A DNA stretch of 64,000 nt. Origin: a virus (Duplodnaviria; Caudoviricetes). Positions 2,169-20,122 of this stretch are shown piece by piece. The notes under the pieces were generated by a model. That model did no database searches and was not told the DNA's origin. It was given only the letters and a program-made list of their open reading frames with translations. Within the stretch, counting starts at the first letter, position 1; every line of letters starts with the position of its first letter. The stretch is taken from IMG/VR virus record IMGVR_UViG_3300020190_000004; one strand, 5' to 3'. The translations under genes and the position numbers were made by a program.

Positions 2169-2294
2169 TTCAGAAGGGTTGTTATCATCCTCTTTTTTCT
2201 TATCTCTTCTACTATGAATTTCGTACACTATTACCGGTGATATACCAGTAATAATTAGAATTATTATGAAAATAATTGGAAGATATTCTATCAC
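2157..2294 (-). CDS. Small single-TM membrane protein (45 aa, not in ORF track)
   Basis: GTG start overlaps the upstream stop (GTGA). Translation VIEYLPIIFIIILIITGISPVIVYEIHSRRDKKKEDDNNPSESDN is a hydrophobic helix followed by a charged tail. Confidence 0.55.
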   Translation of the reverse strand: MIEYLPIIFIIILIITGISPVIVYEIHSRRDKKKEDDNNPSESDN

Positions 2295-2533
2295 TTCTTA
2301 TCACCGTACAATTCGTGATAAGATTTTGTATGTTTAGATGCTTTTAGCATTTTCTTACCTTTAGTATCACCAGGCAGCTCTTTGTATGCATCGGGATCGT
2401 CATCGGGCATATCTGCTTGCTTTGCCATTTGAGACTTTTTCTTATCAATGGTACCTTTGCCAATCCCTTTAAAGTAAGGAGCGTCTTTTTCTGCCTCAGT
2501 TAAGAAGGTCTCAAATGTGCTTATGTGTTTCAT
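2291..2533 (-). CDS. Leader-tagged small protein (resembles the N-terminal part of DUF5824-like proteins)
   Basis: Starts (MD)MKHISTFETFLTE; body contains PYFKGIGK..DDDPDAYKELPGD..KASKHTKSYHELYG. Confidence 0.7.
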   Translation of the reverse strand: MKHISTFETFLTEAEKDAPYFKGIGKGTIDKKKSQMAKQADMPDDDPDAYKELPGDTKGKKMLKASKHTKSYHELYGDKK

Positions 2534-2538
2534 ATCCA

Positions 2539-2889
2539 TTATTTCTTTTTAGGATTGAAACCGGCCTTTCGGGCTTCTTTTGCCAAGTCGGTATCAGCTT
2601 TACCCCATGTGCCTTCACCGCCAGTCAAGAAGCTGTTTACGCGAGCATATGCCCATTGCTCTTGGCCTGCACCAGGGCGGTGACCAGACTTCCAAGCAGC
2701 CATGCCTCGACGGAATACTGCACGGATAATTCCTATTGGACAGCCAGACTCTTCTGCCTTGTTCTTAACACCAGTCTCTAATTCTTCGCTGTCAAGTGGG
2801 CCGCGGTCAGTTGATTGCTTGTCATCGTCTTCAGCTTCAAGTAAATAGCTTTCGTATAAGAAGCTTTCAAATGTGTGTATGCGTTTCAT
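2539..2889 (-). CDS. Leader-tagged DUF5824-like protein (C-terminal part)
   Basis: Starts MKRIHTFESFLYESYLLE; body contains VFRRGMAAWKSGHRPGAGQEQWAYARVNSF. Family name is from recall. Confidence 0.7.
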   Translation of the reverse strand: MKRIHTFESFLYESYLLEAEDDDKQSTDRGPLDSEELETGVKNKAEESGCPIGIIRAVFRRGMAAWKSGHRPGAGQEQWAYARVNSFLTGGEGTWGKADTDLAKEARKAGFNPKKK

Positions 2890-2911
2890 ATATTATGTAT
2901 GTTTAATTTCT

Positions 2912-2919
2912 TATATATC
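2912..2919 (-). promoter_or_regulatory. Putative late promoter GATATATA
   Basis: Exact motif 22 nt upstream of the ATG at 2889. Confidence 0.6.
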
Positions 2920-2925
2920 TTTTTT

Positions 2926-3546
2926 TCATGGTTTTGCTATTAAGTACCCTGAAAGTTGATTGGCAAAATCAACGAAATCATTAACTAGGTTTTTGCTTAT
3001 TCTTTCGTCCGAAGTTCCGATGTTATGACAGCTAATAAAACCAATCAGATCTCCCTTAAGACCGCGAATAGGAATTACAACATTTTGAACGATTCCTTGG
3101 TTTATCATTTCACGAGCCATAACAGGATACTCATCACAGCAATGAGCATCAACTATAACCATATCTTCTTCAAAAAGAATGTTAAACAGTTTTGGAAATT
3201 CTGATACGAGCAGATTTTGGTATTCTCTTTTGATGCGAGCAATTCCAGGCGCAGTGGCTTCATATGTCATAGAGAATTTTTTCATACTTCTGCCGTTAAA
3301 GAATTTACCACCATTATGAAATTGTGATATTGCTACACGATCGAACTCATATTCTTCGCGAATCTTTTCAATGAATTCTGCTATATGGACCATTTCACCA
3401 ACGTCCGCGTGCTTGATTGCTTCTTCAGCATGTTGTTTCCTAATAGCTGCACGAGTATCTAGCCAATTCTTAACGACAACTGTTATGATAGCAATCATTA
3501 TCGAGGTAAAACCGGATATCAAAGATATTGTAACTGATTCGCTCAT
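2926..3546 (-). CDS. Membrane-anchored GAF-like protein, probable T4 T-like holin
   Basis: One N-terminal TM helix (ISLISGFTSIMIAIITVVV), then a GAF-like pattern DRVAISQFHNG...IPIRGLKGDLIGFISC. No leader tag. Confidence 0.5.
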   Translation of the reverse strand: MSESVTISLISGFTSIMIAIITVVVKNWLDTRAAIRKQHAEEAIKHADVGEMVHIAEFIEKIREEYEFDRVAISQFHNGGKFFNGRSMKKFSMTYEATAPGIARIKREYQNLLVSEFPKLFNILFEEDMVIVDAHCCDEYPVMAREMINQGIVQNVVIPIRGLKGDLIGFISCHNIGTSDERISKNLVNDFVDFANQLSGYLIAKP

Positions 3547-3686
3547 CTTCCTTGCCCCCTATAAGACTTTTTGTAGTTTTTTGAACTCTTAAGCTTAGAT
3601 GCTCTCTTTTTTGAATGAATTCCTGGTCTTTTTACTTTTTGCCTTTTTACAAAAGACTTTACTTCTGACGTTTTTGATCTTGCCAT
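3543..3686 (-). CDS. Very basic 47-aa protein ending YRGQGR (not in ORF track)
   Basis: MARSKTSEVKSFVKRQKVKRPGIHSKKRASKLKSSKNYKKSYRGQGR, 18 K/R against 1 E. Its stop overlaps the next ATG (ATGA) and it fills an otherwise empty gap. Confidence 0.7.
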   Translation of the reverse strand: MARSKTSEVKSFVKRQKVKRPGIHSKKRASKLKSSKNYKKSYRGQGR

Positions 3687-4228
3687 GTCTTAACCCATTT
3701 TTTGTAATCGTCGAAGCTCATAATTCCAATGCGTGTGTTGACGTCATCTTCGTCATCTTCTCCAAATTTATCACCAGAACCCACGTTTCCGTTAGCTGGT
3801 GGTGAAACATTACCCATGCCAGGTGTGTTAGGAGGTTGCGCAACCCCGGGAGGGACAGTAGCCGCAACTGCTTCATTCTTTTTTTTCTCGTCGTCTTCTT
3901 TCTTATCAGATATAAAGTCAATAAATGATTGAATAAGTGGATCTTGCTTGTCTCTTGTAGCTAATATATGACTAGCTCCAATGTTTGCCGAGTATTTACT
4001 ATATCTTACCAAGGGGCCGGTACTTAGGAATCCGGATATACTCCCTTCCTCTATGTGTTTAGGTAGCCCTTCGTGTTTAGTTTCTGCAAAATCCTTTAGC
4101 TGATCAAGGGTCATGCTGTCAGCTAAATCTTGTACCTCTCTGCTAGCTTTCGTGGGTTTCATATCACCTTTTTTAAGAGCGTATGCCATACCCATTAGCT
4201 TTTGCTGTGCTTGAGATACCGCAGGCAT
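3659..4228 (-). CDS. DUF3008-like N-terminal domain plus low-complexity tail
   Basis: MPAVSQAQQKLMG...ADSMTLDQLKDFAETKHEGLPKH resembles DUF3008 (recall); acidic and Pro/Gly-rich C-terminal half. Confidence 0.6.
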   Translation of the reverse strand: MPAVSQAQQKLMGMAYALKKGDMKPTKASREVQDLADSMTLDQLKDFAETKHEGLPKHIEEGSISGFLSTGPLVRYSKYSANIGASHILATRDKQDPLIQSFIDFISDKKEDDEKKKNEAVAATVPPGVAQPPNTPGMGNVSPPANGNVGSGDKFGEDDEDDVNTRIGIMSFDDYKKWVKTWQDQKRQK

Positions 4229-4230
4229 GA

Positions 4231-4578
4231 TTAAGTAGTTTTTTGTTTCATTATTGCCTCGTGAACTCTTTCTCCCATTTTAGATAAAGTGTAGTACTTG
4301 GTGTTATTCTTTTCAACAACATTAAAGTAACGAGTATTTTTGTTAACCCATTTACGACTAGTGTTTCCGCCAGTTTCTTCGTTAACACTGTTGATGAATT
4401 CCATCAACTGTGTATGAGTCACTTTTTTCTTTTCTTTAACGAAAGATAGGATTCTTTCACGAATAGGAGCATTATCTGAAACCGCAGATTCTGGATGTTT
4501 CTCGGTGTATTTTCTCTTGATAACAACACGCCCTTCATTTATCATGAAGTCAGTAAAGTTATTTACGTATTTGTTCAT
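4231..4578 (-). CDS. Leader-tagged probable winged-helix protein
   Basis: Starts MNKYVNNFTDFMINE; helical core followed by a wing-like YYTLSKMGERV. Confidence 0.55.
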   Translation of the reverse strand: MNKYVNNFTDFMINEGRVVIKRKYTEKHPESAVSDNAPIRERILSFVKEKKKVTHTQLMEFINSVNEETGGNTSRKWVNKNTRYFNVVEKNNTKYYTLSKMGERVHEAIMKQKTT

Positions 4579-4601
4579 TTCCTGTCCTTATTTTAGTTTT
4601 G

Positions 4602-4609
4602 TATATATC
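4602..4609 (-). promoter_or_regulatory. Putative late promoter GATATATA
   Basis: Exact motif 23 nt upstream of the ATG at 4578, abutting the upstream stop codon. Confidence 0.6.
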
Positions 4610-6376: not shown

Positions 6377-6393
6377 TTATGTTTGTTTTATAG

Positions 6394-6765
6394 TTATATT
6401 TTTCCTGTTAAGCGTATTCTTTTTTCGTCATCATCAACTAAATGATGTCCTACAACATCTTCAATTACTTCTGCCATTTTCTTAGTCTTATCACCAGCTG
6501 GTGGTGTCTGAATTTCCACAGAACCGTTATAGTAAGTTGGAAGTTTTTTTGCCTTTGCATCAAATCCTGCAGAGTTCAAGGCTTTTGCTATTTCCTCAGC
6601 TTCGTCAAACATAATTGTTCCTATCTCTAAGTGGTCGCGATAGTTTAACAGAGTTATAGTAGAAACTTCATGACCGTTTACTACTTCTCCGAGTTCAATA
6701 CGACTCATGTCTACAAGCTTCTTGCCTTCATTTAAGAAACTTTCAAATGTGTGTAGATGTTTCAT
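6394..6765 (-). CDS. Leader-tagged hypothetical protein
   Basis: Starts MKHLHTFESFLNE. Confidence 0.8.
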   Translation of the reverse strand: MKHLHTFESFLNEGKKLVDMSRIELGEVVNGHEVSTITLLNYRDHLEIGTIMFDEAEEIAKALNSAGFDAKAKKLPTYYNGSVEIQTPPAGDKTKKMAEVIEDVVGHHLVDDDEKRIRLTGKI

Positions 6766-6777: not shown

Positions 6778-7215
6778 TTATTCAACTGCAATCTCAACGC
6801 CACCGCTTCCTGTAGAATAAGCGGTAATGCTTATTCGAGAACCGTCTGATAACATTATTCTTACATAAGAATTTTGTCCATCTTCGTCTTCAAGAATAGC
6901 TTTAATCTTCTTTCCTATATGATCCTTTAATGAAGGGTCGGTAGTTCTTGCATCTTCATTAAGCTCATCTTCGTTCAAGCTCTCTTTTACTAGAACCGAT
7001 TGCATACCAAATCTTTCTTTAGCCAATTGTATAGCCATTCTACTTTTTGGCGTATCGTCTAACTCAAAAACTGTAGGCCTTACCTGGTCATATTGGATCT
7101 TATTGCCATCAAGGTCCTTTTTGAACGATGAAACTGCTTTGGAGGCTAGACTAACTGACAGTTTCTTTCCTGAGTTTTCATTTAAGAAGCTTTCAAATGT
7201 GTGTATGTGTTTCAT
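6778..7215 (-). CDS. Leader-tagged hypothetical protein (two small domains)
   Basis: Starts MKHIHTFESFLNE; internal SLNEDELNE linker. Confidence 0.8.
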   Translation of the reverse strand: MKHIHTFESFLNENSGKKLSVSLASKAVSSFKKDLDGNKIQYDQVRPTVFELDDTPKSRMAIQLAKERFGMQSVLVKESLNEDELNEDARTTDPSLKDHIGKKIKAILEDEDGQNSYVRIMLSDGSRISITAYSTGSGGVEIAVE

Positions 7216-7229: not shown

Positions 7230-7601
7230 TTATTTTTTGCCAAACATATCGGTTTCTCTACTACTTGGTCGTTTTGTTTTGCCAGCTTGTATAATTGATT
7301 CCAATTCATCGTATAGATCTTCGGCTTTTGTTATATCTTTTTTGTCTACTCTAAAGTAACCTTTATTAGTATTCATAAAATAATGGTCATCTTTGTTAGC
7401 AACAAAGAAAGTAGACGCTGGAGAAAAAGCAAAAGCTAAATTGACTGCTCTCACCTGGCCATTAGTAATTTCTATGGTAGAAGAACCACCTTTTAAGAGT
7501 TTTGCAAGTTTATCTAGTATTGCATCACCTGTGTTTTTTGCTCCTTCTAAATAAACAATCTTTTCATTTAAGAAGCTTTCAAATGTGTGTATGTGTTTCA
7601 T
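7230..7601 (-). CDS. Leader-tagged hypothetical protein
   Basis: True start inferred at MKHIHTFESFLNE (7601), not at 7622. Confidence 0.8.
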   Translation of the reverse strand: MKHIHTFESFLNEKIVYLEGAKNTGDAILDKLAKLLKGGSSTIEITNGQVRAVNLAFAFSPASTFFVANKDDHYFMNTNKGYFRVDKKDITKAEDLYDELESIIQAGKTKRPSSRETDMFGKK

Positions 7602-7608: not shown

Positions 7609-7905
7609 CTATATTTTTGCAATTGAAGTTACTTTCTTGCCTTTTTTCTCCGCATCATTAGGGTCTGCGTAGTAGAGAAGGTTGGCCTGAATCAGCCTAT
7701 TGAAAATCTCGTCTTTTACAATCTCAAAGTCAATGCTATCAGAAGAGTTTTCCCATGTTTCAGCAACATACTCTGGGTCAATCCATCCATACCCTGCCTT
7801 AATGTTCTTTACCATGTTGGCAAAGTCCAGCTCAAAAGTTTTAACCGCACCTTCATTAAGAGTGGCTTCATTCAAGAAGCTTTCAAATGTGTGTATGTGT
7901 TTCAT
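7609..7905 (-). CDS. Leader-tagged hypothetical protein
   Basis: Starts MKHIHTFESFLNEATLNE (7905). Confidence 0.8.
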   Translation of the reverse strand: MKHIHTFESFLNEATLNEGAVKTFELDFANMVKNIKAGYGWIDPEYVAETWENSSDSIDFEIVKDEIFNRLIQANLLYYADPNDAEKKGKKVTSIAKI

Positions 7906-8192
7906 TTTAGATTCCATGTTCTTTTGTCATCCATATCAAGTATTTCAATGCCTAATTGCTTAACAGTATTTTCTAAATTAGATTGTTCTTCCTGATCTCC
8001 GCTTTTTATGTATTCAATAACATCTCTGAATGATTGAAAAAAATGCTTTTCTCGCATCTGTGTTTTTATCTTATCCCAATTGTAATAAATTGCATGAAGC
8101 AGACCGCTAACACCAGCGGAAGTTAGCGCTAATTCATTTATTTCTTGTTCATTCAAGAAGTTTTCGAATGTGCTTATGTGTTTCATGTCCAT
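7902..8192 (-). CDS. Leader-tagged hypothetical protein
   Basis: Starts (MD)MKHISTFENFLNEQEINE. Confidence 0.8.
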   Translation of the reverse strand: MDMKHISTFENFLNEQEINELALTSAGVSGLLHAIYYNWDKIKTQMREKHFFQSFRDVIEYIKSGDQEEQSNLENTVKQLGIEILDMDDKRTWNLK

Positions 8193-8196: not shown

Positions 8197-8206
8197 TATA
8201 TATTTA
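8197..8206 (-). promoter_or_regulatory. Late-promoter variant (TAAATATATA)
   Basis: AT-rich variant at the gene junction just upstream of 8192/8186; resembles both GATATATA and the T4 late promoter TATAAATA. Confidence 0.35.
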
Positions 8207-9091
8207 TGCCAGGTCAGACGGAAAAGGAAGCTTGGCGTCTGTCAGCTTTTGCTTAAACTCCGTCATGATATCTTCCCGCTTATCAGGGAACTTAAAGTCT
8301 CCGCCGTCAATCAGACCACGCAAACTTTCATAGGTCATGATCTCAGAAACCTTGTGACCACCGTTAAAGAGTAGTTCCACTATCTCCTGCGGAACCCGCG
8401 TAATATCTTTGTCAAACGCTCGAAGAAGGTCTGCATTTTTTTTCAGCCCGCGTGCACCTTCAAAGGTTTTGCGTACTTGTACAACTCCCTGATTCATACG
8501 TATCACATATGCCTTGTACTCAGCAGTTTCACCTTTGCCGGTTTGCTTGGTGATCTCGTAAAAGCAATTTCCAATTGCGGCCATCAGCAATATGTTTCTG
8601 TAAGCACCTTTGTACTGTGATTCGCCTGCTCGAAAGTCTGGCGAGTGGTAGATAAACTTACTCCATTCCAGGTCAATCGACATCATTAAATCTACTTGGC
8701 CAATTCCGTTTGCTGAATCCCCGGCAACAGGAACGCCAATGCTTACTTGCTGTAACCCTTTTTGCATTAAGGTGGAATATCCTAAAGACATTAACTTTTC
8801 ATCTAATGCCATCAATGAATTTTCCAAAGAGACTCCTAAGAAACCAGCAATCTTGTCAGCCGAGACCGCGATATCTATATCTCCGGAAGTAGCTTCCGGT
8901 AATTTCTTACCCGCACTTCCAATTACTGCAGCATCATCACCAATTCCTACCAATCCGATTTGAGGAAAAATGTTCTTTACAATCCAATCCACAGTAGGCT
9001 GAACTTGGTTCTGTTGAAAAGGTACAGCATTCTCAATAGAGTTGCCACTTTCAAGAATGAATTGTTCAAACAACTTGACGTACTGCCTCAC
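8204..9091 (-). CDS. Leader-tagged Pol-beta-superfamily nucleotidyltransferase
   Basis: Likely GTG start at 9091 (TAGTG overlap) gives MRQYVKLFEQFILE. Catalytic pattern IGSAG...SGDIDIAV...QVDLM. Confidence 0.65.
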   Translation of the reverse strand: MRQYVKLFEQFILESGNSIENAVPFQQNQVQPTVDWIVKNIFPQIGLVGIGDDAAVIGSAGKKLPEATSGDIDIAVSADKIAGFLGVSLENSLMALDEKLMSLGYSTLMQKGLQQVSIGVPVAGDSANGIGQVDLMMSIDLEWSKFIYHSPDFRAGESQYKGAYRNILLMAAIGNCFYEITKQTGKGETAEYKAYVIRMNQGVVQVRKTFEGARGLKKNADLLRAFDKDITRVPQEIVELLFNGGHKVSEIMTYESLRGLIDGGDFKFPDKREDIMTEFKQKLTDAKLPFPSDLA

Positions 9092-9624
9092 TAGAATCCT
9101 GCCTTTTGTGCCTCTTTGCGGTCTAACCACTTTGCGTTAACTACGTCGTACCAGATGTTTGAATCACTTGACCCAGGAAGAATAAAGTTAGTCCCGTTAG
9201 AACCTCCGCTTGTGTGCGTGTAAGAGTAGTTTAGGTTTGTCCAAATGCATGGTTCAAACTCAAAGTCTGAACCATCTTCAGCGGTAGCTTTTGAAATCTT
9301 TGGAAAGCTTCCGCCGCCAAAGAAGGAAAGATATACCTCTTTGAACCCATACTGCATGATGCCCAATGCATCACCTGTCACAGGCTTAGATACCAATTTG
9401 ATACGGTTACCCGCGTCTTCAATAGCAAAGTCAGTTGGCCAGTCCACGCCTTTATCCTTAAGGAAAGTTGCTAACGCTGGTCCTGCATTTTCCAGGATAT
9501 CAGCCTTAAGCGTAGCCTCGTCTTTGAATTTGTCATCACTAACGTACTTTACGTTTTCGTTAAGGTCAGCAGCTTCATTCACACCTTTGTTGATGTAAGT
9601 TTCAAAAGTTTTTAAGTGTTTCAT
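9091..9624 (-). CDS. Leader-tagged hypothetical protein
   Basis: Starts MKHLKTFETYINKGVNEAADLNE. Confidence 0.8.
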   Translation of the reverse strand: MKHLKTFETYINKGVNEAADLNENVKYVSDDKFKDEATLKADILENAGPALATFLKDKGVDWPTDFAIEDAGNRIKLVSKPVTGDALGIMQYGFKEVYLSFFGGGSFPKISKATAEDGSDFEFEPCIWTNLNYSYTHTSGGSNGTNFILPGSSDSNIWYDVVNAKWLDRKEAQKAGF

Positions 9625-9883
9625 TGTATTTTGTTATTTTGACTATTAAATCAGTGGTGCCGGGTATCACGCGATGGATAACGCCGGCAGGTATTTTAAT
9701 CACTGTATATATCTTTTCTGGTAGTTGGTTATCAAACTGAAATTGCCAATCATTTTCGTTAAGAGGTTCAACGATTCTGTCCTCTTCATCCCAATGCCAT
9801 TTATATTCTGACCAGTCAGTATTTACAAAAAAAGTCCGTATGACTACGGACTCATTGATTTTTTCTTCTTTATAAGGTTTCAT
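9602..9883 (-). CDS. Cupin-like small protein
   Basis: Start MKPYKEEKINE at 9883 (TAATG overlap); KWHWDEEDR...IPAGVIHRVIPG is a cupin-type His pattern. Confidence 0.55.
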   Translation of the reverse strand: MKPYKEEKINESVVIRTFFVNTDWSEYKWHWDEEDRIVEPLNENDWQFQFDNQLPEKIYTVIKIPAGVIHRVIPGTTDLIVKITKYNETLKNF

Positions 9884-10050: not shown

Positions 10051-10072
10051 TTTTTCTATTTTATTTTTTTTG

Positions 10073-10080
10073 TATATATC
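10073..10080 (-). promoter_or_regulatory. Putative late promoter GATATATA
   Basis: Exact motif 22 nt upstream of the ATG at 10050, overlapping the upstream TAG. Confidence 0.6.
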
Positions 10081-10619
10081 TACCAGGGTGCATCGGACTG
10101 AAGTCCTAACTGCTTATTAAAGAGCGTGCTGGCGTAACAAGCCCAGAACCCCGCGGTAGTAGGGTCCATCTTTTTTTGTAAATCGCACTGTTGGCGTGCC
10201 CAGAAAGATGCAGAAGCCACAGGATCGTCATTCTTGATGGAAAGACCCGTGGTGTCTCCCCATTGAATTTGCATTGCCAAGATATTTCCATCTTCATCTT
10301 CTTTCCCGCTGTTGTGATACACCGTAAACTTTTTATCTCCACCACGAAATGGTGTGTCGAGTTCTACGTCAATCATTTTGCCGTCAGGTGTTTCAAACTT
10401 TGCCTTTTTACCCACTTCCAGATTCTTGGCCATCCAAGCAGCTTTATCGGAGAGTATGATGTTATCTTCGTCCCAGTATTTCTTTGTCTCTTCAAAAAGA
10501 TCTTTATAGGCTTGACTGCCTAAACGGTAGACAGAATTGGTTATGTCCAACCCATTTTCCATGTGGTAGCGGAATCCTTCGGAGACCTGGAAGTCTTCAA
10601 ATGTCTTTACGTATTTCAT
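10080..10619 (-). CDS. Leader-tagged conserved phage protein
   Basis: Starts MKYVKTFEDFQVSEGF; C-terminal KKFTVY..WGDTTGLSIK..SFWARQQC..AGFWAC Cys-containing module. Confidence 0.75.
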   Translation of the reverse strand: MKYVKTFEDFQVSEGFRYHMENGLDITNSVYRLGSQAYKDLFEETKKYWDEDNIILSDKAAWMAKNLEVGKKAKFETPDGKMIDVELDTPFRGGDKKFTVYHNSGKEDEDGNILAMQIQWGDTTGLSIKNDDPVASASFWARQQCDLQKKMDPTTAGFWACYASTLFNKQLGLQSDAPW

Positions 10620-11320: not shown

Positions 11321-11742
11321 TTGAACATACTTTTATTGTAGATAACTAATCCTAAGTAAGGATTGTTATTTTTACCTTCTGTTGGATCATAAACGCCATC
11401 AGCCTTCTTTTCTTTTGCCATTTGCATAATTTTTTGCCCACCATATTTTTGCGCGTCGGGGACTAATAAAATTTTAGCATCATTAGAAAGTTCATATTCA
11501 TCCGAACCAGCATAATAATCATCAGATTCATAATGGGCCGAACTGTCTGCAGTAACTGAAAAGTAGCTTCCTTTCCCTAAGACCGAACCCATAGTATCCA
11601 TATCTTCATCTCCGCTTTCATACTCAAAAAAAGCCTTTTCTAACTTACCAGAATCCGTAGTTAGGTATTTCTTTTTGAATTCAGCACCTGTAATTAGTTC
11701 TGATTCATTCATAAAACTTTCGTATGTCTTTACGTATTTCAT
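11317..11742 (-). CDS. Leader-tagged ADP-ribosyltransferase-like (ART-PolyVal-like) protein
   Basis: Starts MKYVKTYESFMNE; LGKGSYFS..SAHY..YELSNDAKIL..KKADGVY..LVIYN pattern. Confidence 0.4.
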   Translation of the reverse strand: MKYVKTYESFMNESELITGAEFKKKYLTTDSGKLEKAFFEYESGDEDMDTMGSVLGKGSYFSVTADSSAHYESDDYYAGSDEYELSNDAKILLVPDAQKYGGQKIMQMAKEKKADGVYDPTEGKNNNPYLGLVIYNKSMFK

Positions 11743-11748: not shown

Positions 11749-12117
11749 TTATTTATTCATCTCTTGAGTCTTCTTCTTTAACTCTTCGAGAAAGTTTGTC
11801 CATATCACATTAGCAGCTTTCAGGTTTTTCTTCTTTTCCGGGTCCTTGGTCCTTTCAATAGCAACCTTTCCACGCTGCTGCATCACCAAGGCAGCTTGCA
11901 CCTTGTGCGCATGCTCTCGGTCAATGCCTTTAATAATCTCAATGCCTTTTTCCGCCGTCTCAGCGTCTTTGAAGCCCAAGCCATGAATTGTGCCTTCTGG
12001 ATCCTCGTCAGTGTACAAATCCGAGTGCTTGCTTGAACCGGCTGGTTGACCTGGTTTTCTAGGGGTTCTTTTATCAGCTTCCGCAATCCAAGATTCGTAT
12101 GTCTTTACGTATTTCAT
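11749..12117 (-). CDS. Leader-tagged conserved viral protein
   Basis: Starts MKYVKTYESWIAE; body HSDLYTDEDPEGTIHGLGFKD..HAHKVQAALVMQQR. Confidence 0.75.
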   Translation of the reverse strand: MKYVKTYESWIAEADKRTPRKPGQPAGSSKHSDLYTDEDPEGTIHGLGFKDAETAEKGIEIIKGIDREHAHKVQAALVMQQRGKVAIERTKDPEKKKNLKAANVIWTNFLEELKKKTQEMNK

Positions 12118-12154: not shown

Positions 12155-12658
12155 TTAAGAAAGCAATTTAATAGCTTTCGGTGGTATCTTGCCCAGATAT
12201 ACAATTTCATCCGATTGCTTGTAGTAATCATCTCTTGATATCTTTTTATCAGCTTTTACATCAATCATTAGTTTAGGTGGTATCTCAATTCCTATTGAAA
12301 ATAAATTGGGATCTAGTTGTGTACCGTCTATCTGCAACAATACTCCATCATACTCGTATCTACGCGGTAAGTAATGAAAACTCACAATATCTGATACATT
12401 GTCCAAAGATGACAGCCAAACTCCTTCGAACAATTCACCTTTCAATCCTCCTCCGTGAGTACCAGCTTTTGGGCGAGAGGGTATCAATCCTTCCTTTTCT
12501 ACCTTATCATAGTAAGCTTGACGCATCACTAAATGGTATAAAGGCTGTTTTGTGTTAAAAGGTTCATCAGATTGGATAGATTGCAAATAATCTAACCCAA
12601 CTCGCATATCTTTATTGCCTTCATCCAAGAAGCTCTCGTATGTCTTTACCCACTTCAT
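12155..12658 (-). CDS. Leader-tagged ART-fold (Tpt1/KptA-like NAD-binding) protein
   Basis: Starts MKWVKTYESFLDE; LYHL..EGLIP..GVWLS..VLLQID..DEIVYLGKIPPKAI follows the H-S-E type ART strand order. Confidence 0.55.
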   Translation of the reverse strand: MKWVKTYESFLDEGNKDMRVGLDYLQSIQSDEPFNTKQPLYHLVMRQAYYDKVEKEGLIPSRPKAGTHGGGLKGELFEGVWLSSLDNVSDIVSFHYLPRRYEYDGVLLQIDGTQLDPNLFSIGIEIPPKLMIDVKADKKISRDDYYKQSDEIVYLGKIPPKAIKLLS

Positions 12659-12951
12659 CTCTTGCTGATCTTGTTACTTGAAATGGCTCTTTGCCTGCTA
12701 CACTTAAACCTGGCTATCTCTTCGTCTCTCTTGTGTAGGTGTTTCTGACTTACACCGCTGTTAACACGCTCCCTCCAAAGATTAAAACTTTTTCTCTTTA
12801 ATTCAGCACGCATCAACTTAATAGTTTCAGATTCGCTGAGACCAAACTGAGCCTTGATTGCCTCAAAAGGTGTTCTGTCCTCCCACGCCATTTCTATGAT
12901 GCGATCTACATTCTCACTTGATATGCTCTTGTATGTCTTTACGCATTTCAT
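12655..12951 (-). CDS. DUF2805/TIGR03643-family protein with a degenerate leader
   Basis: VDRIIEMAWEDRTPFEAIKAQFGLSESETIKLMRAELKRKSFNLWRERV is the family signature (recall); starts MKCVKTYKSISSE. Confidence 0.8.
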   Translation of the reverse strand: MKCVKTYKSISSENVDRIIEMAWEDRTPFEAIKAQFGLSESETIKLMRAELKRKSFNLWRERVNSGVSQKHLHKRDEEIARFKCSRQRAISSNKISKR

Positions 12952-13253
12952 TAGTCTTGCTTATCTTGTTGATATTGCCAAAGTTCTTCATAAGAAGTCA
13001 TCCATCCGTTTTCTTTGGCAATTCTTTCAGTATTACTGTTTGCTTGCAATAGAAAAGAAATTACTGCATCAAAAGCTTTTTTGAAGTCAGCTTCTTTAAC
13101 GCGATCCCAATAACCAACACCTATGTAGTCTTTAATCACATAGAATGGATATGCCGGGTCTTTTACGCTTTTGGTTCTGCGAGTTTGCAAATGAACAGAC
13201 TTTGGATCCGCATTTTCATTCAAAAAACTCTCGTATGTCTTTACGTAATTCAT
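12951..13253 (-). CDS. Leader-tagged hypothetical protein
   Basis: Starts MNYVKTYESFLNE. Confidence 0.8.
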   Translation of the reverse strand: MNYVKTYESFLNENADPKSVHLQTRRTKSVKDPAYPFYVIKDYIGVGYWDRVKEADFKKAFDAVISFLLQANSNTERIAKENGWMTSYEELWQYQQDKQD

Positions 13254-13258: not shown

Positions 13259-14029
13259 TTAAAATTCATTCCAAAATTTAGCTATACGGTCATACACACG
13301 TTTTTGGTCTTCTTTAGATATCATTTTTAACCATGTCCATTCTTCTGGATAGATTTCATTCAATATAAAGTAAATGAAATCGTTGAGGTTATCAAAATGT
13401 TTTGTAGGGTCGCCGTAATCATTGTAAACTCGATTTAGCGCGGTATTTAGGTGTGTATTGATTTCAGCATTTAGTTGGTGATACTTTTCTTGCGGCAATT
13501 TTCCGTTTTCGTCAGCAAACTTTTTAACAAAATCGTCCAGTTGTCGATTCATAGCCTCGCGGTATTTATCGCCATACTCAGTTGCATCAAATAAGTGATG
13601 TACTTCATGATTGATGGCTCTTACAAATTCTCCGCTCCAGATTCTTTCTGGTGCTTTCATCATAGTCTCAATCAAATCTTGCAATTCCTTTACATAGTCT
13701 TTGTCAAAATCTCCGTCGTTGTAAGCAAGCTCAACAAGATTGTATCGGTACTTTGGTTTTCTAAAGTAATGAGCAAGTCCTAACGTTATGTCCAGTGTAT
13801 CATAATTTATTGATGCCGCGTCATGCCTATCTGGATCTATGGTAACATTAAATTCAACGCCGTCTATCGAAAATATGTAGTCGTCCTCAAATTTAACCAG
13901 CTGTGCTGCAATAGCAGCTGCTTTGCTTTTTAGCGTTGATAAAACTTTGTCAACCATTTTGTTCGCTTTATCAAACCTCTGAACAAAACTTTCATTCAAG
14001 AAGCTCTCGTATGTCTTTACCCACTTCAT
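13259..14029 (-). CDS. Leader-tagged putative zincin metallopeptidase-like protein
   Basis: Starts MKWVKTYESFLNE; contains INHEVHHLFD (HExxH). Confidence 0.5.
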   Translation of the reverse strand: MKWVKTYESFLNESFVQRFDKANKMVDKVLSTLKSKAAAIAAQLVKFEDDYIFSIDGVEFNVTIDPDRHDAASINYDTLDITLGLAHYFRKPKYRYNLVELAYNDGDFDKDYVKELQDLIETMMKAPERIWSGEFVRAINHEVHHLFDATEYGDKYREAMNRQLDDFVKKFADENGKLPQEKYHQLNAEINTHLNTALNRVYNDYGDPTKHFDNLNDFIYFILNEIYPEEWTWLKMISKEDQKRVYDRIAKFWNEF

Positions 14030-14703
14030 AATTGTATAAATCTTCCAGGAGAGTCACTGCTTAACTTTCCGTTCTTTATGACAAACCGGTCTTTTTGTAT
14101 CTCAGCAGTCCAGTCGCCAGGAAGCCTGTGTCCTTGTTTCTTTATATATTCCAGGTAGAGTCTTCCACGCTTTGACTGCGCAACAGGAACTCCTTCTTCA
14201 ATGTCTTCCAATTTAGGTGCTATGTGTATCTCTTCCAGTTTTACCCATTTCCACTCGGATATATCTTTGACCGTGCTGGCAATAATATCTGTCACTGTGG
14301 AAATTACACGAAACTGTTCACCGTAATTAGTAATGGCTTCTCGATCCGTACCAATTTTACTATTTACAGTATCAAAGGCTATACCTATCACCAAGTTGTA
14401 ATCTTGTGGTGTTCGACCGGGACGTTTACCCCCAAAACTAATGTGTATATAGCGTGTAAACTCACCAACGATCTTTACTACGTATGTAGCCTTATCACTC
14501 TTAAACTCATAAGTAATCTCCGGTAGTTTATCCCATTTGCCTGGAACCATTTCACCCTTGTCTAGGTTGGATATCGTAGTCATCCAACCACGATCTACAG
14601 ACACAGAACCAGTGCGTTTCCAAGGAAACGGTGATGTGCCTTCGCCAATCTCGTTAAGCTGCTGTTCCAGTAAAAAGTATTCAAATGTGTTTAAGTGCTT
14701 CAT
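14026..14703 (-). CDS. Leader-tagged hypothetical protein
   Basis: True start inferred at MKHLNTFEYFLLEQQLNE (14703). Confidence 0.75.
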   Translation of the reverse strand: MKHLNTFEYFLLEQQLNEIGEGTSPFPWKRTGSVSVDRGWMTTISNLDKGEMVPGKWDKLPEITYEFKSDKATYVVKIVGEFTRYIHISFGGKRPGRTPQDYNLVIGIAFDTVNSKIGTDREAITNYGEQFRVISTVTDIIASTVKDISEWKWVKLEEIHIAPKLEDIEEGVPVAQSKRGRLYLEYIKKQGHRLPGDWTAEIQKDRFVIKNGKLSSDSPGRFIQL

Positions 14704-14704
14704 C

Positions 14705-15106
14705 TTAATCCATAGAATCCGAAAGTCTCCACAAATCATGTAAGAACAAATCCGCGTCTTTCATGTTTTTAATCTCTGGAAACTCTTGTTTTGCTTTCTT
14801 AATAAATTCTTCCACGGTTTTGGATTCTTGACGAAGAATGTCCAATTCGCTCATGTAACCTTCAAATAAGTAACTTTCAAAAGACTCTGTAATCGCACCA
14901 AATTCGTTGAACATATTCAAGTTAATCATTACAGGACTACCGCTTTTAGGTTTTGCGGTAATCGTAGTCTTATTGTTTGCGGTAACAGTCATTCGTGTGC
15001 CGCGGTATACAATCTCTGAATCTACGGGAATCTTCTCAAAGTCTTCCAGTGTCATCTTTTGTCCATAGTTCTTTATGAATCCTTCAAATGTTTGTAAGTG
15101 TTTCAT
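14705..15106 (-). CDS. Leader-tagged protein with a second, internal leader-like motif
   Basis: Starts MKHLQTFEGFIK; internal ITESFESYLFEG. Confidence 0.75.
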   Translation of the reverse strand: MKHLQTFEGFIKNYGQKMTLEDFEKIPVDSEIVYRGTRMTVTANNKTTITAKPKSGSPVMINLNMFNEFGAITESFESYLFEGYMSELDILRQESKTVEEFIKKAKQEFPEIKNMKDADLFLHDLWRLSDSMD

Positions 15107-15702
15107 TACTTGATGTATTTTGTTAGTTCACTCCAGTATTTCCACAATTCTTTGGGCATCATTTGCTGAAATGCTTTTTCGTCTCCAGCTTTAATAGCCT
15201 CTCGAACTTTAGTACCACTTGCACCGTCAGCATCACGAGCATCAACCATTTTAACAGCAAAAGCAGGATCAACGGCGACGTCGGTTTTAGGACTTGTGAC
15301 GTATGCAACTTGACGAGTATAGTCAGTAAAACGATCACTTCCACAGCCAAGTCCTTGCGGTTCGTATCCTTGTTCTCGTAAGAATTTAACCATTAGTGGA
15401 ATAACCGTCTTGTCTCCTTTTGGGTATATGAAGTAGTCCGCAATAAACGCATTTGCTTTTACTACATCTGCTCCCATCTTTTGCAAAATATCATCAGGAA
15501 ACGGCGATTCTTCGCGAGCAGAAAGTATCTGTAACGGAATTACAGGCAGTCCAAATTCTTTTGAAGCACGCTCAAGTGCCGCTAAATGCCCGTTATGAAA
15601 AGGCTGAAACCTTCCGGGAAAAAAGATTACTTTCTTCCCGTCTGTGATTTCAGATATGATCGCTTCATACAGAAAACTCTCAAATGTTTTTACGTGGTTC
15701 AT
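15106..15702 (-). CDS. Leader-tagged cytidylyltransferase-like (HIGH superfamily) nucleotidyltransferase
   Basis: Starts MNHVKTFESFLYE; FFPGRFQPFHNGH, GCGSDR, ASGTKVR. Confidence 0.85.
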   Translation of the reverse strand: MNHVKTFESFLYEAIISEITDGKKVIFFPGRFQPFHNGHLAALERASKEFGLPVIPLQILSAREESPFPDDILQKMGADVVKANAFIADYFIYPKGDKTVIPLMVKFLREQGYEPQGLGCGSDRFTDYTRQVAYVTSPKTDVAVDPAFAVKMVDARDADGASGTKVREAIKAGDEKAFQQMMPKELWKYWSELTKYIK

Positions 15703-15710: not shown

Positions 15711-16229
15711 TTATTGTTCATTCGTTGTTATTTCTCCTTTAGCTTCTAAAAACACACGTCTTACATTGGCGGGTTGTGCAATTTTCCATGCAGTTCTTCG
15801 CGCCTGATAAAGTCGGCTTTTTGCTATTCTTGAAACACTTACAGAATTGTTTTGGTTTCCACCTAATACATGGTAATACTTATCATCTTCACCGACGTAT
15901 ATTCCTACGTGGCCTCCGCCGTTTCTCTTAAAAGTAAGAATATCTCCTAACATCGGAGTTTCTACGAGATTTCCGTACTTAGCCCAGTTTAGAGCCCATA
16001 GTGGTCTTTCAACCACTTGAACATTCGCAACATAGGCGCAATGAGCAATAAAAAGACCGCACCAAGGAATTTCATCTTCGGTATAAACTTTTTGAATACC
16101 AAGTTCTTTTGCCCACCCCAGTATCGTAGGGTTGTGATTCTTTCCGACTATTTCTTTAACACCAAGATTCTTAACAGCTTCTACAAGTATCTTTGGAGAT
16201 TTCTCATTTTGTAACCATTCGTAAGCCAT
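15711..16229 (-). CDS. TIGR02594-like NlpC/P60/CHAP-type cell-wall peptidase
   Basis: DEIPWCGLF, GGGHVGIY, LGGNQNNSV (Cys/His dyad). No leader tag. Confidence 0.8.
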   Translation of the reverse strand: MAYEWLQNEKSPKILVEAVKNLGVKEIVGKNHNPTILGWAKELGIQKVYTEDEIPWCGLFIAHCAYVANVQVVERPLWALNWAKYGNLVETPMLGDILTFKRNGGGHVGIYVGEDDKYYHVLGGNQNNSVSVSRIAKSRLYQARRTAWKIAQPANVRRVFLEAKGEITTNEQ

Positions 16230-16246
16230 AATCTTTTTTATTTAAT

Positions 16247-16858: not shown

Positions 16859-16869
16859 ATTCTTTGTTT

Positions 16870-18177
16870 TTATTTTTTGTATGCAAGTATTGAACGGATC
16901 TGATGTAGAGGGGCAAAGATTCCTGTGTACTTGTAGAGCTTTCCTTTGAAAACAAATGTAATACCTTCAGTAGGAACAATGCTTTCTAAACCACCAGCAG
17001 CTGCAACCCGGTTAAGTTCCACCTCCAATTTAGCAACATCTTTTTCGTCGCCGTTTGTTTTAACGGATGCAATTGTGCTGTCTATTTCTCGTCGCATTGC
17101 TGCGGCAGCATCAGTTGGATTAGCGCTTAAGAATGCACTAATGTTTTTCATCATTTCTGTACCAATCTCCAAGAATAGACTTTCAAGCGGAGCATAAACA
17201 GCTCTCTTTAATTCTTTTTCTTTTGACTTTTCTAAATCAGTATACCATGTAACAACTTCTGGCGCAAGATCCTTCTTCATCATTGCAGCGGTGTATGATT
17301 TATCAATACCAGCAATTCGTCGAGCAAGACCGTCTAAAAACTGCGGGGGTATAGCAATACCTGCAGATTTTGCTTCTTCTTCTAATATCTTCTTACCCAT
17401 CCCCAAAGCATAATCTCCAACCGTAGAAGACGGTGTTGATCCGCTTTCTTTCATGATAGTATCAAGCTTGCCGTTGTAGTAAGAAGCGCGCGCTTTGGTA
17501 TTTGGAAATGGCACCGATGCAATATCTTGTGGGCCACGAACGTAGAATTTCTTTTGAGCGGCAGCGTTTGCGTCAGCAATAAGTTTTCCTAAATCACGGC
17601 CAGCTTGTTTATCTTCACCTACTGCATTTCCACCTTCATCATGTTCAACTACTCCGTGAAAGACAAGCATGTCTTGACCGTAAGGAACGGTGTTTTGTGT
17701 AATAGGTGTAATCACTTCTACGCTAGCAAACTTCTTGCCTTCGTCAAAGAATTTCTTTTTGTCTGCATCGCTAAGAGCACCGATAGCACCAGAGAGATCC
17801 GCCATTGCAGCGTTGTACGCAGTTTCTATATCACCGCGGCCAGCAAAAAGAGCAGCAAGACCCGCAGAATCTAGAGCAGCTTCACCAGCGTTCTTTAAAT
17901 GAATCTTGTTTCTTGCGGCAATAAGTTTACCGTTTTTCCAGGAAATCATAATGTTTTGTCCGTCAGTCTTCTCCTGAACAAAGTTGTCAGGCGTAAAAGC
18001 ACCTTCAACGGTTGCATTAATCATTTCTCGCAGATCTCCCATCGTTAAACCCACGTCTTCAAATGGATGGCTAATGTGTCCATACGCGCCTCCTTCATTA
18101 AGAACACTCTCTAACACCCAAGAAGTGTTAAACGTGCGTTCCTCGTTTAGAAATTGTGTATATGACTTTAGACTCAT
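16870..18177 (-). CDS. Leader-tagged ligase/capping-type nucleotidyltransferase-like protein
   Basis: Starts MSLKSYTQFLNE...VLESVLNE; motif I VQEKTDGQN and motif IV/V PTEGITFVFKGKLYK. Confidence 0.55.
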   Translation of the reverse strand: MSLKSYTQFLNEERTFNTSWVLESVLNEGGAYGHISHPFEDVGLTMGDLREMINATVEGAFTPDNFVQEKTDGQNIMISWKNGKLIAARNKIHLKNAGEAALDSAGLAALFAGRGDIETAYNAAMADLSGAIGALSDADKKKFFDEGKKFASVEVITPITQNTVPYGQDMLVFHGVVEHDEGGNAVGEDKQAGRDLGKLIADANAAAQKKFYVRGPQDIASVPFPNTKARASYYNGKLDTIMKESGSTPSSTVGDYALGMGKKILEEEAKSAGIAIPPQFLDGLARRIAGIDKSYTAAMMKKDLAPEVVTWYTDLEKSKEKELKRAVYAPLESLFLEIGTEMMKNISAFLSANPTDAAAAMRREIDSTIASVKTNGDEKDVAKLEVELNRVAAAGGLESIVPTEGITFVFKGKLYKYTGIFAPLHQIRSILAYKK

Positions 18178-18178
18178 T

Positions 18179-18622
18179 TTAATAATCGCTATTTCCTAGA
18201 TACATAAACTCTTTTTCAAAATCACTGGAACTACGATACCCTCGATATTCACTAAGTTTTCTATCTATTAGTGACATAGGTTGTCCTACTAATTGTTCTA
18301 AAGCCCGAACCCAATGTCCACCTGGATAGCTAGAATCATCGGTGTTATCATTGGCAGACTCAGCATTTGCTGCTAGTGCAATACGTAAAAGTTCTTCTGT
18401 GTCAAGATTTTCTAATTCTTCTGCTATTGTTTTTTCAACTTTCTTAACATTAGCATCGGAAGATATCTTTCTGATATTGACACCGCTTTGTGAGTAACTT
18501 AAATCAGCAATTTCACTTAGAGTAAATTCCATCCAAGCAAAAGCTAAAATTGCTGCGTCTCCTCCTTCTGAGTAATCTGATAACTCGTTTAGGAAACTTT
18601 CAAATGTTTTTACGTGTTTCAT
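18179..18622 (-). CDS. Leader-tagged hypothetical protein
   Basis: True start inferred at MKHVKTFESFLNE (18622). Confidence 0.75.
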   Translation of the reverse strand: MKHVKTFESFLNELSDYSEGGDAAILAFAWMEFTLSEIADLSYSQSGVNIRKISSDANVKKVEKTIAEELENLDTEELLRIALAANAESANDNTDDSSYPGGHWVRALEQLVGQPMSLIDRKLSEYRGYRSSSDFEKEFMYLGNSDY

Positions 18623-18659
18623 AGTATTATAGTTCTTTAACTTCATTATGCTAAGATTT

Positions 18660-18881
18660 TTACTTTGAATCCAGTAGTGGTTTCACTGTGTTAACGAATG
18701 TTCTCAATGCAGACTGTGCAAGACGGTCATTGTAAATGAGTTTACCCAACTCAGTGTTTTTCATACCTGCCCACTCAGCAATTCCTGAAACAATAGAGTC
18801 TTCAATACCTTCTGGTGTATGGTCCAACTTACTGCCTTCGTTAGCGTTGGAAAAACTTTCAAATGAATGTATCGGTTTCAT
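18660..18881 (-). CDS. Leader-tagged hypothetical protein
   Basis: Starts MKPIHSFESFSNANE. Confidence 0.75.
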   Translation of the reverse strand: MKPIHSFESFSNANEGSKLDHTPEGIEDSIVSGIAEWAGMKNTELGKLIYNDRLAQSALRTFVNTVKPLLDSK

Positions 18882-18888
18882 ATTACTG

Positions 18889-19173
18889 TTATTTTTCTAC
18901 CATTGGTGTGCCATCGGGTTTTTTCCCAGTCATTAAGGCGTAAGCAATGATGTCGTAAGTTTCAAAACCCGGTCTTGGAGCTACTCCACCGTTATAGTCT
19001 TTTTCCCACTGCGCAAGAGATGTTTTATTCTCTGGATCAAATTTACCTTCTTCGTAATCTTTGATAGCATTCATAGCAAACATTGTATCCCAAGACTTGG
19101 GCTTTTGCATTTCATTTATAGGTCTGTCAACTTTTTGATTAGAAAAGCTTTCGAATGTGTGTAAGTGTTTCAT
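18889..19173 (-). CDS. Leader-tagged hypothetical protein
   Basis: Starts MKHLHTFESFSNQKVDRPINE. Confidence 0.75.
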   Translation of the reverse strand: MKHLHTFESFSNQKVDRPINEMQKPKSWDTMFAMNAIKDYEEGKFDPENKTSLAQWEKDYNGGVAPRPGFETYDIIAYALMTGKKPDGTPMVEK

Positions 19174-19176
19174 TTG

Positions 19177-19389
19177 TTAAAATGTATTTTCCATTATGAT
19201 AGTCTGAACAGCATCTTTAATTGCATTAATGTTGGCACCAGGTTTTAACATTCCTGAAGATTCCAACTTGTCAACAATTACCATTGCAAGTATCTTTGCG
19301 CCTGATGGTTTTTTATCGCCAGCAACTTGCACCATTGCTTCTTCAACTTTCTCGTTAGAGAAGTCTTCAAATGTTTTGATGCTTTTCAT
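19177..19389 (-). CDS. Leader-tagged hypothetical protein
   Basis: Starts MKSIKTFEDFSNEKVEE. Confidence 0.75.
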   Translation of the reverse strand: MKSIKTFEDFSNEKVEEAMVQVAGDKKPSGAKILAMVIVDKLESSGMLKPGANINAIKDAVQTIIMENTF

Positions 19390-19390
19390 A

Positions 19391-19723
19391 TTACTTAGTA
19401 AGATCTTTCATCTTGTCAGCAGCAGATCCGTCTAGATCAGCTACATCTTTAGAAGGCTCTTCCTTCTCTTTTTCTTCAGCTTTCTTTTCTTCTGCTTCTA
19501 CTTCTTTTTTAACAGAATCTTTCACGCCTTTTCCCTTCTCCCACTCCTTGGTGATTTCATTAAAGAATTCTTTCTTCTTTTCATCATCAAGTTCAGCAGG
19601 TGACTCAACACCAAACTTAGAAAGTTTTGCTTTAAAGTAATCTTGATAAGATTTTTGAAGCTCTGATGCTTCATTCATTTGAGCTTGACGTACTGCGTCT
19701 ACCCATTCGTTGAACTTTTTCAT
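19391..19723 (-). CDS. Charged small protein with a short leader variant (possible prohead core component)
   Basis: Starts MKKFNEW..QMNE; YQDYFKAKLSKFGVESPAELDDEKKKEFFN followed by an E/K-rich tail. Confidence 0.6.
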   Translation of the reverse strand: MKKFNEWVDAVRQAQMNEASELQKSYQDYFKAKLSKFGVESPAELDDEKKKEFFNEITKEWEKGKGVKDSVKKEVEAEEKKAEEKEKEEPSKDVADLDGSAADKMKDLTK

Positions 19724-19738
19724 TTTTTCTTATTTATT

Positions 19739-20122
19739 TTAAGTCATTCCATAGTGGTTCATCTGACCTCCGTAAAAATCATCGGTCATCTTGGTAATAT
19801 CTTTAACTATTTTGCTCTTGTCTTCACCAACTTCTTTAGCAAGTAGCTCAATAATATCACCGTCAATTCGCAATTTCTTATCAAGACAGTACACATATGT
19901 AGATATTGCCTTGTTAATGTTTGCGCGTTTTTCTCCGTCTTCTGAATCAACCGACTTGTAATACTTGTCAAGAAGTTGTCTTCTTAAAGTCTCAAGAGTT
20001 TCATCAGCAAAGTTTATAGTCGTCTTAATGATATGCTTGTTATCTGAACGAATGACTGTTCCAGCGTTAGTCAATCCTTTCTTTCCCTCAACAAGAAATT
20101 CAGAAAAAGTCAATATCCTCAT
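19739..20122 (-). CDS. Leader-tagged hypothetical protein (first gene of the array)
   Basis: Starts MRILTFSEFLVE. Confidence 0.75.
   Translation of the reverse strand: MRILTFSEFLVEGKKGLTNAGTVIRSDNKHIIKTTINFADETLETLRRQLLDKYYKSVDSEDGEKRANINKAISTYVYCLDKKLRIDGDIIELLAKEVGEDKSKIVKDITKMTDDFYGGQMNHYGMT

Follow-up and report, generated by a model that had tools for sequence, protein, structure and literature searches.

An array of unrelated phage genes sharing an N-terminal leader that resembles the T4 capsid targeting sequence

Mullaney and Black (1996) are reportedly the source for the capsid targeting sequence (CTS) of the phage T4 internal proteins IPII/IPIII, of IPI, and of Alt. This sequence reads MKTYQEFIAE in IPII/IPIII, is also carried by Alt, and is removed by the prohead protease gp21 (PMC9026906, PMC5694885); all T4 internal head proteins enter the core by way of a CTS (PMC5694885). 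In the CTS, residues 4 and 7 are the main determinants of targeting and residues 8 and 10 those of processing; gp21 cuts after L/I-x-E, and an Asp at position 10 blocks cutting while leaving targeting intact (PMC9026906). Here we analyze a 64,000-nt stretch of an uncultured phage (IMG/VR record IMGVR_UViG_3300020190_000004; the whole stretch is referred to hereafter as the window), in which a minus-strand array of some 28 genes, unrelated in their bodies, opens with a common leader that resembles the T4 sequence.

Two other described systems invite comparison. The polymorphic ip loci of T-even phages hold alternative CTS-bearing genes (Repoila et al, 1994, as summarized in PMC9026906); as far as that summary goes, they share with the present array a common leader and exchangeable bodies, which suggests that an arms race with host defences drives the exchange of cassettes, but involve one or a few genes per phage among close T4 relatives, whereas here there are dozens, in giant phages that are uncultured, distantly related, and of freshwater and marine origin. 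In the phiKZ-like giant phages (phiKZ, 201phi2-1, SPN3US), head and ejection proteins are cut by a gp21 homolog at S/A-x-E; the common ground is many head-internal proteins cut after Glu by a T4-type protease, with redundant propeptide sites (PMC9026906, PMC5694885). Their propeptides, however, are mostly longer than 100 residues in place of one shared short tag, and these phages are not close relatives of the present one.

A preliminary description of the window had placed a shared M-K leader on 28 genes whose bodies are otherwise dissimilar. A check of open reading frames (ORFs) across the 64 kb finds a minus-strand ORF start at every one of the 28 coordinates, and the 13-residue leader is present in strict form on 23 of these genes (2291–19389, minus strand; consensus MKHxKTFESFLNE, as a pattern M-K-H-[IVL]-K-T-[FY]-E-S-F-L-N-E), with M1 invariant and K2, T6, and E8 each conserved in at least 90% of the alignment. 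The claim is weaker for the other five: the core is shifted in register in genes 4578, 18177, and 20122 (genes being named here by their start coordinate), gene 9091 starts at GTG or farther upstream, and gene 19723 fits barely enough to be a doubtful member. Scanning all six frames of the 64 kb with a position matrix from the 23 strict leaders returned those 23 sites alone at 12 bits or above, all at ATG starts and none past 19389, a result that is partly circular in that the same sites trained the matrix. Array genes have 15 copies of an independent pattern, [FYW]-[EQD]-x-[FWY]-[LIMV]-x-[ED], in their first 30 residues, against a single copy in the remaining window proteome (roughly 20,000 residues), and a pattern search of the window's proteins found the motif on none of its replication genes. 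Untagged genes inside the stretch, as had been reported, include those for a membrane protein (2926–3546), a 55-residue membrane protein (9883–10050), and a CHAP/NlpC-P60 lysin (15711–16229). Past residue 16, comparison of the 28 proteins by BLASTP yields a single weak pair (E = 2e-4). The leader does not have the character of a Sec, Tat, or lipoprotein signal peptide, five of its 13 residues being charged or polar and a hydrophobic run being absent.

Alignment with the T4 sequence relates the leader to residues of mapped function. T4 IPII and IPIII begin MKTYQEFIAE and IPI begins MKTFKEF; placed on leader positions 5–13, the T4 CTS core obtains 9.4 bits, and the fraction of random 9-mers that score as high is 3.5e-5. 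The T4 determinants 4, 7, 8, and 10 then fall on leader positions 7, 10, 11, and 13, which are among the most conserved: position 7 is F/Y in 23/23 leaders, position 10 is aromatic in 22/23, position 11 is L/I/M in 17/23, and position 13 is E in 17/23. An [LIM]-x-E triplet occupies positions 11–13 in 16 of the 23 aligned leaders, with a later L/I/V-x-E or none in the rest. The leader with an exact IAE ending (gene 12117) and the second sites ATLNE, QEINE, ADLNE, QYLNE, QQLNE, and SVLNE, all reported in the preliminary description, are present. As in T4, then, a short N-terminal tag sits on unrelated proteins, with a core of K-T-[YF]-x-[ES]-F-[IL]-x-E, aromatics at both positions that govern targeting and [LI]-x-E at those that govern processing; it differs in being 13 residues long, and would correspond to a T4-type CTS with four more residues, MKH[IVL], in front of K-T-[FY]-E-S-F-[LI]-N-E.

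T4 has genes for a Peptidase_S77 protease and for a Gp23 capsid protein, and the same appears to hold for this phage. Such a pair of genes, anticipated elsewhere in the genome by the preliminary description, lies on a contig of the same phage population (L149), which we reached through homologs of a relative's protease. Another candidate, P0113, was rejected as the phage's own protease, belonging instead to another phage (one in which tagged genes lie between the protease and capsid genes). P0165, a 619-residue protease encoded on L149, comes from the same Joint Genome Institute (JGI) samples as the window's genes, both being found on three contigs of 0.2–1 Mb; these shared samples, together with synteny with the 238 kb relative G033 (76% helicase identity), lead us to infer that L149 carries the head cluster of the window's phage. 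Its protease gene (1860 nt, L149:6485–8344) encodes a Peptidase_S77 domain (43.3 bits, where the cut-off is 27) in fusion with a scaffold, and stands beside the gene for a Gp23 capsid protein (145.8 bits); an 801-residue protein and a 300-residue SET-domain protein (903 nt, L149:12818–13720) are also encoded. The protease N-terminus contains ..LMILE-R, like the LIE-9 site of T4 gp21 (PMC9026906). The capsid protein begins MQLLNE-A and has HSLNE-G at about residue 44; alignment with T4 gp23 did not fix its maturation site. Tagged genes accompany this cluster, encoding the SET protein (MIKTYYEYLTE-A), a 94-residue protein (MKTFGEFIGK), and a 248-residue LicD-like protein (MHNIKNYTQWLNE). The SET gene's MIKTYYEYLTE is the most T4-like tag of all. 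SET-domain (lysine methyltransferase) genes number at least three in this material, the others being at 53498–53920 (plus strand) in the window and the gene next to it on contig L009.

The centre of the scaffold part of the fusion is built of about nine 14-residue repeats of exact period, I-x-Y-[AS]-E-Y-[LV]-A-E-K, an arrangement in which the system departs from T4. Protease–scaffold fusions likewise occur in G033, L134, L045, and LR756500.1, and a public collection holds more than 5,000 such proteins. Potential cleavage triplets, [LIV]-x-E, are found at 5.3 per 100 residues in the protease–scaffold protein versus 1.5 in the window proteome, and the pattern aromatic-x-x-aromatic-aliphatic-x-E, which was widened after the repeats had been seen, is enriched about 180-fold in the repeats relative to window proteins. 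The leader matrix, applied to the scaffold, ranks just one repeat high, and a matrix of the scaffold repeats does not rank the leaders on top; with the scaffold profile in correct register, typical leaders rank within the top ~3% of positions, and the T4 CTS and the SET-protein leader in the top 0.006%. The profile tests being weak for the typical leader, we put forward docking of the tag on a scaffold repeat purely as a hypothesis suggested by the likeness of the two sequences.

Outside the window, a degenerate pattern for the leader DNA recovered at least 117 IMG/VR loci with at least 172 ORFs, which give at least 135 unique complete proteins in at least 84 body families. Among the matches listed, to which the following counts refer, 61% of 135 tagged proteins have S, A, or G directly behind Glu13, a Peptidase_S77 gene is present in 20 of 37 leader-bearing records of at least 50 kb and in 9 of the 10 that are at least 50% complete (one under the Pfam cut-off), and nearly all carriers of the tag are T4-like phages. 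A tagged protein of 112–115 residues (MKIIKTFEDFISE...) recurs within head clusters in the order Portal_T4 gene, tagged gene, protease–scaffold gene, Gp23, that is, in the slot held in T4 by the prohead core genes 67 and 68; a search among GenBank phages gave no match to this 112-residue family. The preliminary description had proposed that relatives be scanned with a leader profile, and such scans extend the tag well beyond this array. G033 has the core within the first 22 residues of 28 of its 308 ORFs, and 26 times elsewhere (66,357 residues), about ten of these in the scaffold; one of its tagged genes is directly upstream of the protease. A profile of 61 leader N-termini, run against 1.84 billion representative proteins, retrieved 442 at E ≤ 0.001, the match starting at residue 1 in 144 of the best 150 of the 442. 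Some multi-module proteins carry [FY]ESFL-x-E copies between their modules with no Met in front, as would be expected of a processing site: P0241, P0242, P0243, P0249, and P0250 each have two to three copies of the core, one N-terminal and the others between modules, and resemble small polyproteins formed by the joining of tagged cargo genes.

The proteins behind the tag are small (median 125 residues, range 70–435 across the 28) and hydrophilic, the 70-residue product of gene 19389 (grand average of hydropathy +0.15) excepted. Recognizable domains are DUF5824, DUF2805, an HxGH cytidylyl/adenylyltransferase, and one protein with a KxDG motif (EKTDG); none of ten cargo proteins tested against PHROGs was recognized. 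The tag is an add-on, since the nucleotidyltransferase body (15106–15702) exists without it in cultured Xanthomonas and Stenotrophomonas phages and the Pfam domains of the cargo begin after residue 15. Being small but not basic, and including enzymes, the cargo resembles Alt-type enzyme cargo more than the T4 internal proteins. The Pfam DUF5891 match to the 14705–15106 protein is confined to residues 2–35, i.e., the leader region, and the tag may have become part of the model of at least this one Pfam family.

Taking these comparisons together, we consider it rather probable, though well short of certain, that the leader is a capsid-targeting, protease-cleaved tag of T4 type, deployed on a far larger scale than in T4. 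In the mechanism we envisage, the tagged genes would be transcribed alongside head and tail genes from promoters of the GATATATAC type (see below), and the amphipathic tag would dock each new protein on the prohead scaffolding core, supplied here by the protease–scaffold fusion. Once the shell has closed, the gp21-type Peptidase_S77 protease would cut behind Glu13, the last residue of [LIM]-x-E, and many cargo proteins would be cut again at a second x-L-N-E a few residues on; the mature protein would be kept in the head and exit with the DNA at infection. It is by analogy with T4 that we predict the docking step, the cleavage, the retention in the virion, and the injection. The array is situated outside the head cluster, and T4 ipI–III are similarly placed. 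The scale differs markedly (about 25 genes in one array, and ~9% of the ORFs of a close relative, against three to four in T4), as does the cargo, mostly acidic and with enzymes included, in a system known here from its genes.

Several observations weigh against this interpretation. The tagged proteins have a median isoelectric point of 5.5 (above 8.5 in 7 of 28), T4 internal proteins being basic; six of the 23 strict leaders lack L-x-E at the usual place, and L-x-E carries little information as a motif. A 15-column leader profile run on the T4 genome missed the T4 internal proteins and gave a spurious antisense match in gene 27 alone, such that the likeness to T4 stands on direct bit-scoring of the T4 CTS core and not on a profile search. 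The array sits amid replication genes (DNA polymerase and dUTPase at 1–1584 on one side; helicase, exonuclease, primase, and a gp32-type single-stranded DNA-binding protein at 20171–25114 on the other), and read-through from the helicase gene is possible, so that its expression need not be confined to the late phase. Finally, a tagged-gene number of about 28 is without precedent for packaged proteins, and the link from L149 to the window is indirect. The preliminary description is borne out in part. Its core idea of a T4-type targeting sequence is favoured by the protease and capsid genes, the match to the T4 determinants, the L-x-E ending, the tagged genes within head clusters, the T4-like distribution, and the lack of the tag on replication genes; the cargo, however, is mostly acidic, and the figure of about 28 packaged species is a projection from the number of tags.

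Docking and cutting need not imply delivery. The tag could target proteins to the core, and be cut there, on what are assembly proteins or core fillers later degraded or expelled, like T4 gp67/gp68 and the scaffold, as opposed to effectors. The conserved tagged protein in the slot of genes 67 and 68 would suit this well, many of the cargo proteins are small and acidic, and many have extra L-x-E sites; yet there is no obvious reason to load and then destroy folded enzyme domains (HxGH nucleotidyltransferase, SET methyltransferase, DUF2805, KxDG-type), and the diversity of at least 84 unrelated body families is more suggestive of a payload that varies than of a conserved set of assembly proteins. 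We judge this alternative unlikely.

A similarly low probability attaches to the leader being a handle for some cytoplasmic partner unconnected with the head, be it a chaperone, a modifying enzyme, a host target, or a protease that destroys the proteins on schedule. A short conserved amphipathic N-terminus could bind any common partner, and the array does lie in the replication region. Such a partner would not explain why the tag reproduces the determinants mapped for the T4 CTS (PMC9026906), why it occurs on genes inside head clusters, or why it tracks genomes with a T4-type protease; nor was any other partner gene seen as a consistent neighbour of the tag.

The leader might instead act as nucleic acid, as a translation-start enhancer or recombination cassette, with the conserved peptide a by-product. 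Codon identity among leaders is indeed 0.66, versus 0.49 predicted from codon usage; leader DNA identity is 0.77 between neighbours and 0.68 between distant pairs, and three adjacent genes have near-identical 39-nt leaders. Against this, the invariant residues are written in mixed codons (GAA/GAG, TTT/TTC, AAT/AAC, Leu as TTA/TTG/CTA/CTG, and Ser as AGC/AGT/TCT, which includes AGY/TCN switches), and these synonymous differences at fixed residues show that selection acts on the peptide. The peptide is moreover retained between phages whose helicases are just 44% identical, the 40 nt upstream of the leaders are unconserved, internal copies occur without a start codon, and, among the window's proteins, the highly expressed structural ones do without the element. 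We accordingly regard a purely nucleic-acid role as very improbable. Leader subtypes also group by position (MKHIHTFESFLNE at 6765–8186, MKYVKT[FY]E at 10619–14029), and this clustering, together with the closer DNA identity of neighbours, indicates that the tag has spread by local copying between genes. It is also probable that the shared 39-nt leader DNA serves as a recombination handle by which cargo genes are gained or swapped as cassettes, likely as a secondary effect. PeSL-type mobile regulatory cassettes, known from the hyperplastic regions of T4, place a conserved non-coding promoter and stem–loop at gene boundaries; the array does not have this form, since no conservation is seen in the 40 nt before the leaders and most intergenic gaps are −35 to +37 nt. 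That the genes form one old paralogous family in which the N-terminus alone is still recognizable, and no modular tag exists, is the least credible explanation, the tandem arrangement and position-clustered subtypes notwithstanding, given bodies of 70 to 435 residues with different known domains and no pairwise similarity, one of which has leaderless homologs elsewhere.

Returning to the T4-type targeting tag, the CTS principle and the polymorphic ip loci of T-even phages are already known. Our literature search found the T4 CTS work and nothing on expanded CTS-like tags in environmental phages; the scale, enzyme cargo, lineage, and protease–scaffold arrangement were not found described, nor did the search turn up a paper naming the docking partner of the CTS. 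A broader proposal, which we advance tentatively and think distinctly less probable than the targeting role itself, is that a large lineage of uncultured T4-related phages, both freshwater and marine, operates a "plug-and-pack" system: the tag would approximate a scaffold repeat unit, allowing any protein to join the prohead core; the fused protease would free it; dozens of effectors, enzymes included, would be delivered with the DNA; and the 39-nt leader DNA would shuffle cargo between phages. If the proteins are packed and injected, giant environmental phages would deliver dozens of ready-made proteins at infection, enzymes among them, where T4 delivers three or four. In that case the tag would make it simple to pick out candidate first-minute effectors from metagenome sequences; these could serve anti-defence, host takeover, or nucleotide and RNA handling and span hundreds of families without known function. 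The tagged set would also supply T4-style protein delivery with a natural library of tags for capsid loading. Together, the tag, the scaffold repeat, and the protease in fusion with the scaffold offer a concrete route to studying CTS docking.

The tagged genes, all on the minus strand, are set out here in order of coordinate. The first two, 2291..2533 (80 residues, leader MKHISTFETFLTE) and 2539..2889 (116 residues, MKRIHTFESFLYE, DUF5824 body), are separated from the main run by the loosely tagged 4231..4578 (115 residues, MNKYVNNFTDFMINE in shifted register, with GATATATAC 22 nt upstream). There follow 6394..6765 (123 residues, MKHLHTFESFLNE) and three genes with the leader MKHIHTFESFLNE, namely 6778..7215 (145 residues), 7230..7601 (123 residues, its 39-nt leader identical to that of 7215), and 7609..7905 (98 residues, with ATLNE as second site). 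Gene 7902..8186 (94 residues, MKHISTFENFLNE) has QEINE as its second site; the loosely tagged 8204..9091 encodes 295 residues counted from GTG, (V)RQYVKLFEQFILE, its G033 ortholog starting a few codons upstream; and in 9091..9624 (177 residues, MKHLKTFETYINK) the first L-x-E is farther on (ADLNE).

Genes 10080..10619 (179 residues) and 10616..11320 (234 residues, followed by QYLNE) share MKYVKTFEDFQVSE. Next are 11317..11742 (141 residues, MKYVKTYESFMNE) and 11749..12117 (122 residues), whose leader MKYVKTYESWIAE is the nearest in the array to T4 MKTYQEFIAE, then 12155..12658 (167 residues, MKWVKTYESFLDE), 12655..12951 (98 residues, degenerate leader MKCVKTYKSISSE, DUF2805 body from residue 16), 12951..13253 (100 residues, MNYVKTYESFLNE), 13259..14029 (256 residues, MKWVKTYESFLNE), and 14026..14703 (225 residues, MKHLNTFEYFLLE plus QQLNE). 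The 133-residue product of 14705..15106 (MKHLQTFEGFIKN) has a second, internal copy of the core at residue 75, and in 15106..15702 (198 residues, MNHVKTFESFLYE) the cytidylyl/adenylyltransferase (HxGH) body runs from residue 27. The loosely tagged 16870..18177 encodes the largest product (435 residues, MSLKSYTQFLNE...SVLNE), with KxDG (EKTDG) nucleotidyltransferase-like motifs; these, together with SVEVI and EGITFVFKGKLYK, resemble the covalent nucleotidyltransferase (ligase/capping) superfamily. Pfam and PHROG searches gave no match for this protein, and a protein atlas gave viral DUF6267 alone. The array continues with 18179..18622 (147 residues, MKHVKTFESFLNE), 18660..18881 (73 residues, MKPIHSFESFSNA, L-x-E absent from the usual place), 18889..19173 (94 residues, MKHLHTFESFSNQ, with PINE later), 19177..19389 (70 residues, MKSIKTFEDFSNE), and the doubtful 19391..19723 (110 residues, MKKFNEWVDAVRQAQMNE); its first gene in the direction of transcription is the loosely tagged 19739..20122 (127 residues, MRILTFSEFLVE), which again has GATATATAC 22 nt upstream.

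The window contains six copies of the 9-mer GATATATAC, where 0.46 would be expected, and every copy is on the coding strand (here minus). One copy (20145..20153) heads the array, lying in the 48 nt that separate it from the helicase gene; within the array, copies lie upstream of the gene for the 55-residue membrane protein (10072..10080, gene 10050), 80 nt upstream of tagged gene 9624 (9705..9713), and upstream of gene 4578 (4601..4609); beyond it, copies precede gene 36899, of 1925 residues (36924–36932), and gene 51115 (51142–51150). Five of the six, those of genes 4578, 10050, 20122, 36899, and 51115, are 21–26 nt before the start codon. On L149 the 9-mer is found at 4996, 6445, 7072, and 10377, before the protease, a nested scaffold start, the 801-residue gene, and the tagged 248-residue gene; on L009 it occurs at 4087 and 8248 and precedes a baseplate-J-like gene. 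We propose GATATATAC as a candidate late-promoter element of this phage group, and the copy at the domain junction of the protease–scaffold gene suggests a nested, scaffold-only product. As the array is tightly packed and has GATATATAC before its first gene, its co-expression with structural genes is plausible.

The phage is a giant one from fresh water, and its structural genes are of T4 type. The window's proteins are also encoded on contigs from Lake Tanganyika (freshwater) metagenomes. Contig L009 matches the window over 10.3 kb at 99.9% identity and runs on into a T4 gp13-like neck gene and the baseplate-J-like gene, with a further tagged gene (MKHIKTFENFLNE) immediately before the former. 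Megablast of the array against GenBank phages gave no match; the records in GenBank that come closest belong to uncultured huge phages, namely LR756500.1 (462 kb; helicase 44% identical) and the Lak phages. Between 28067 and 63357 the minus strand carries a run of giant genes (711, 1925, 2529, 1190, 717, and 2179 residues), none with a functional PHROG annotation, which are probably structural, encoding tail fibre or baseplate proteins. Within the same interval, a 164-residue protein (30213–30707, minus strand) has a signal peptide ending ...FLSCAISAQ. Signal peptides with such endings are common in Bacteroidota proteins, a weak hint that the host may belong to this phylum.

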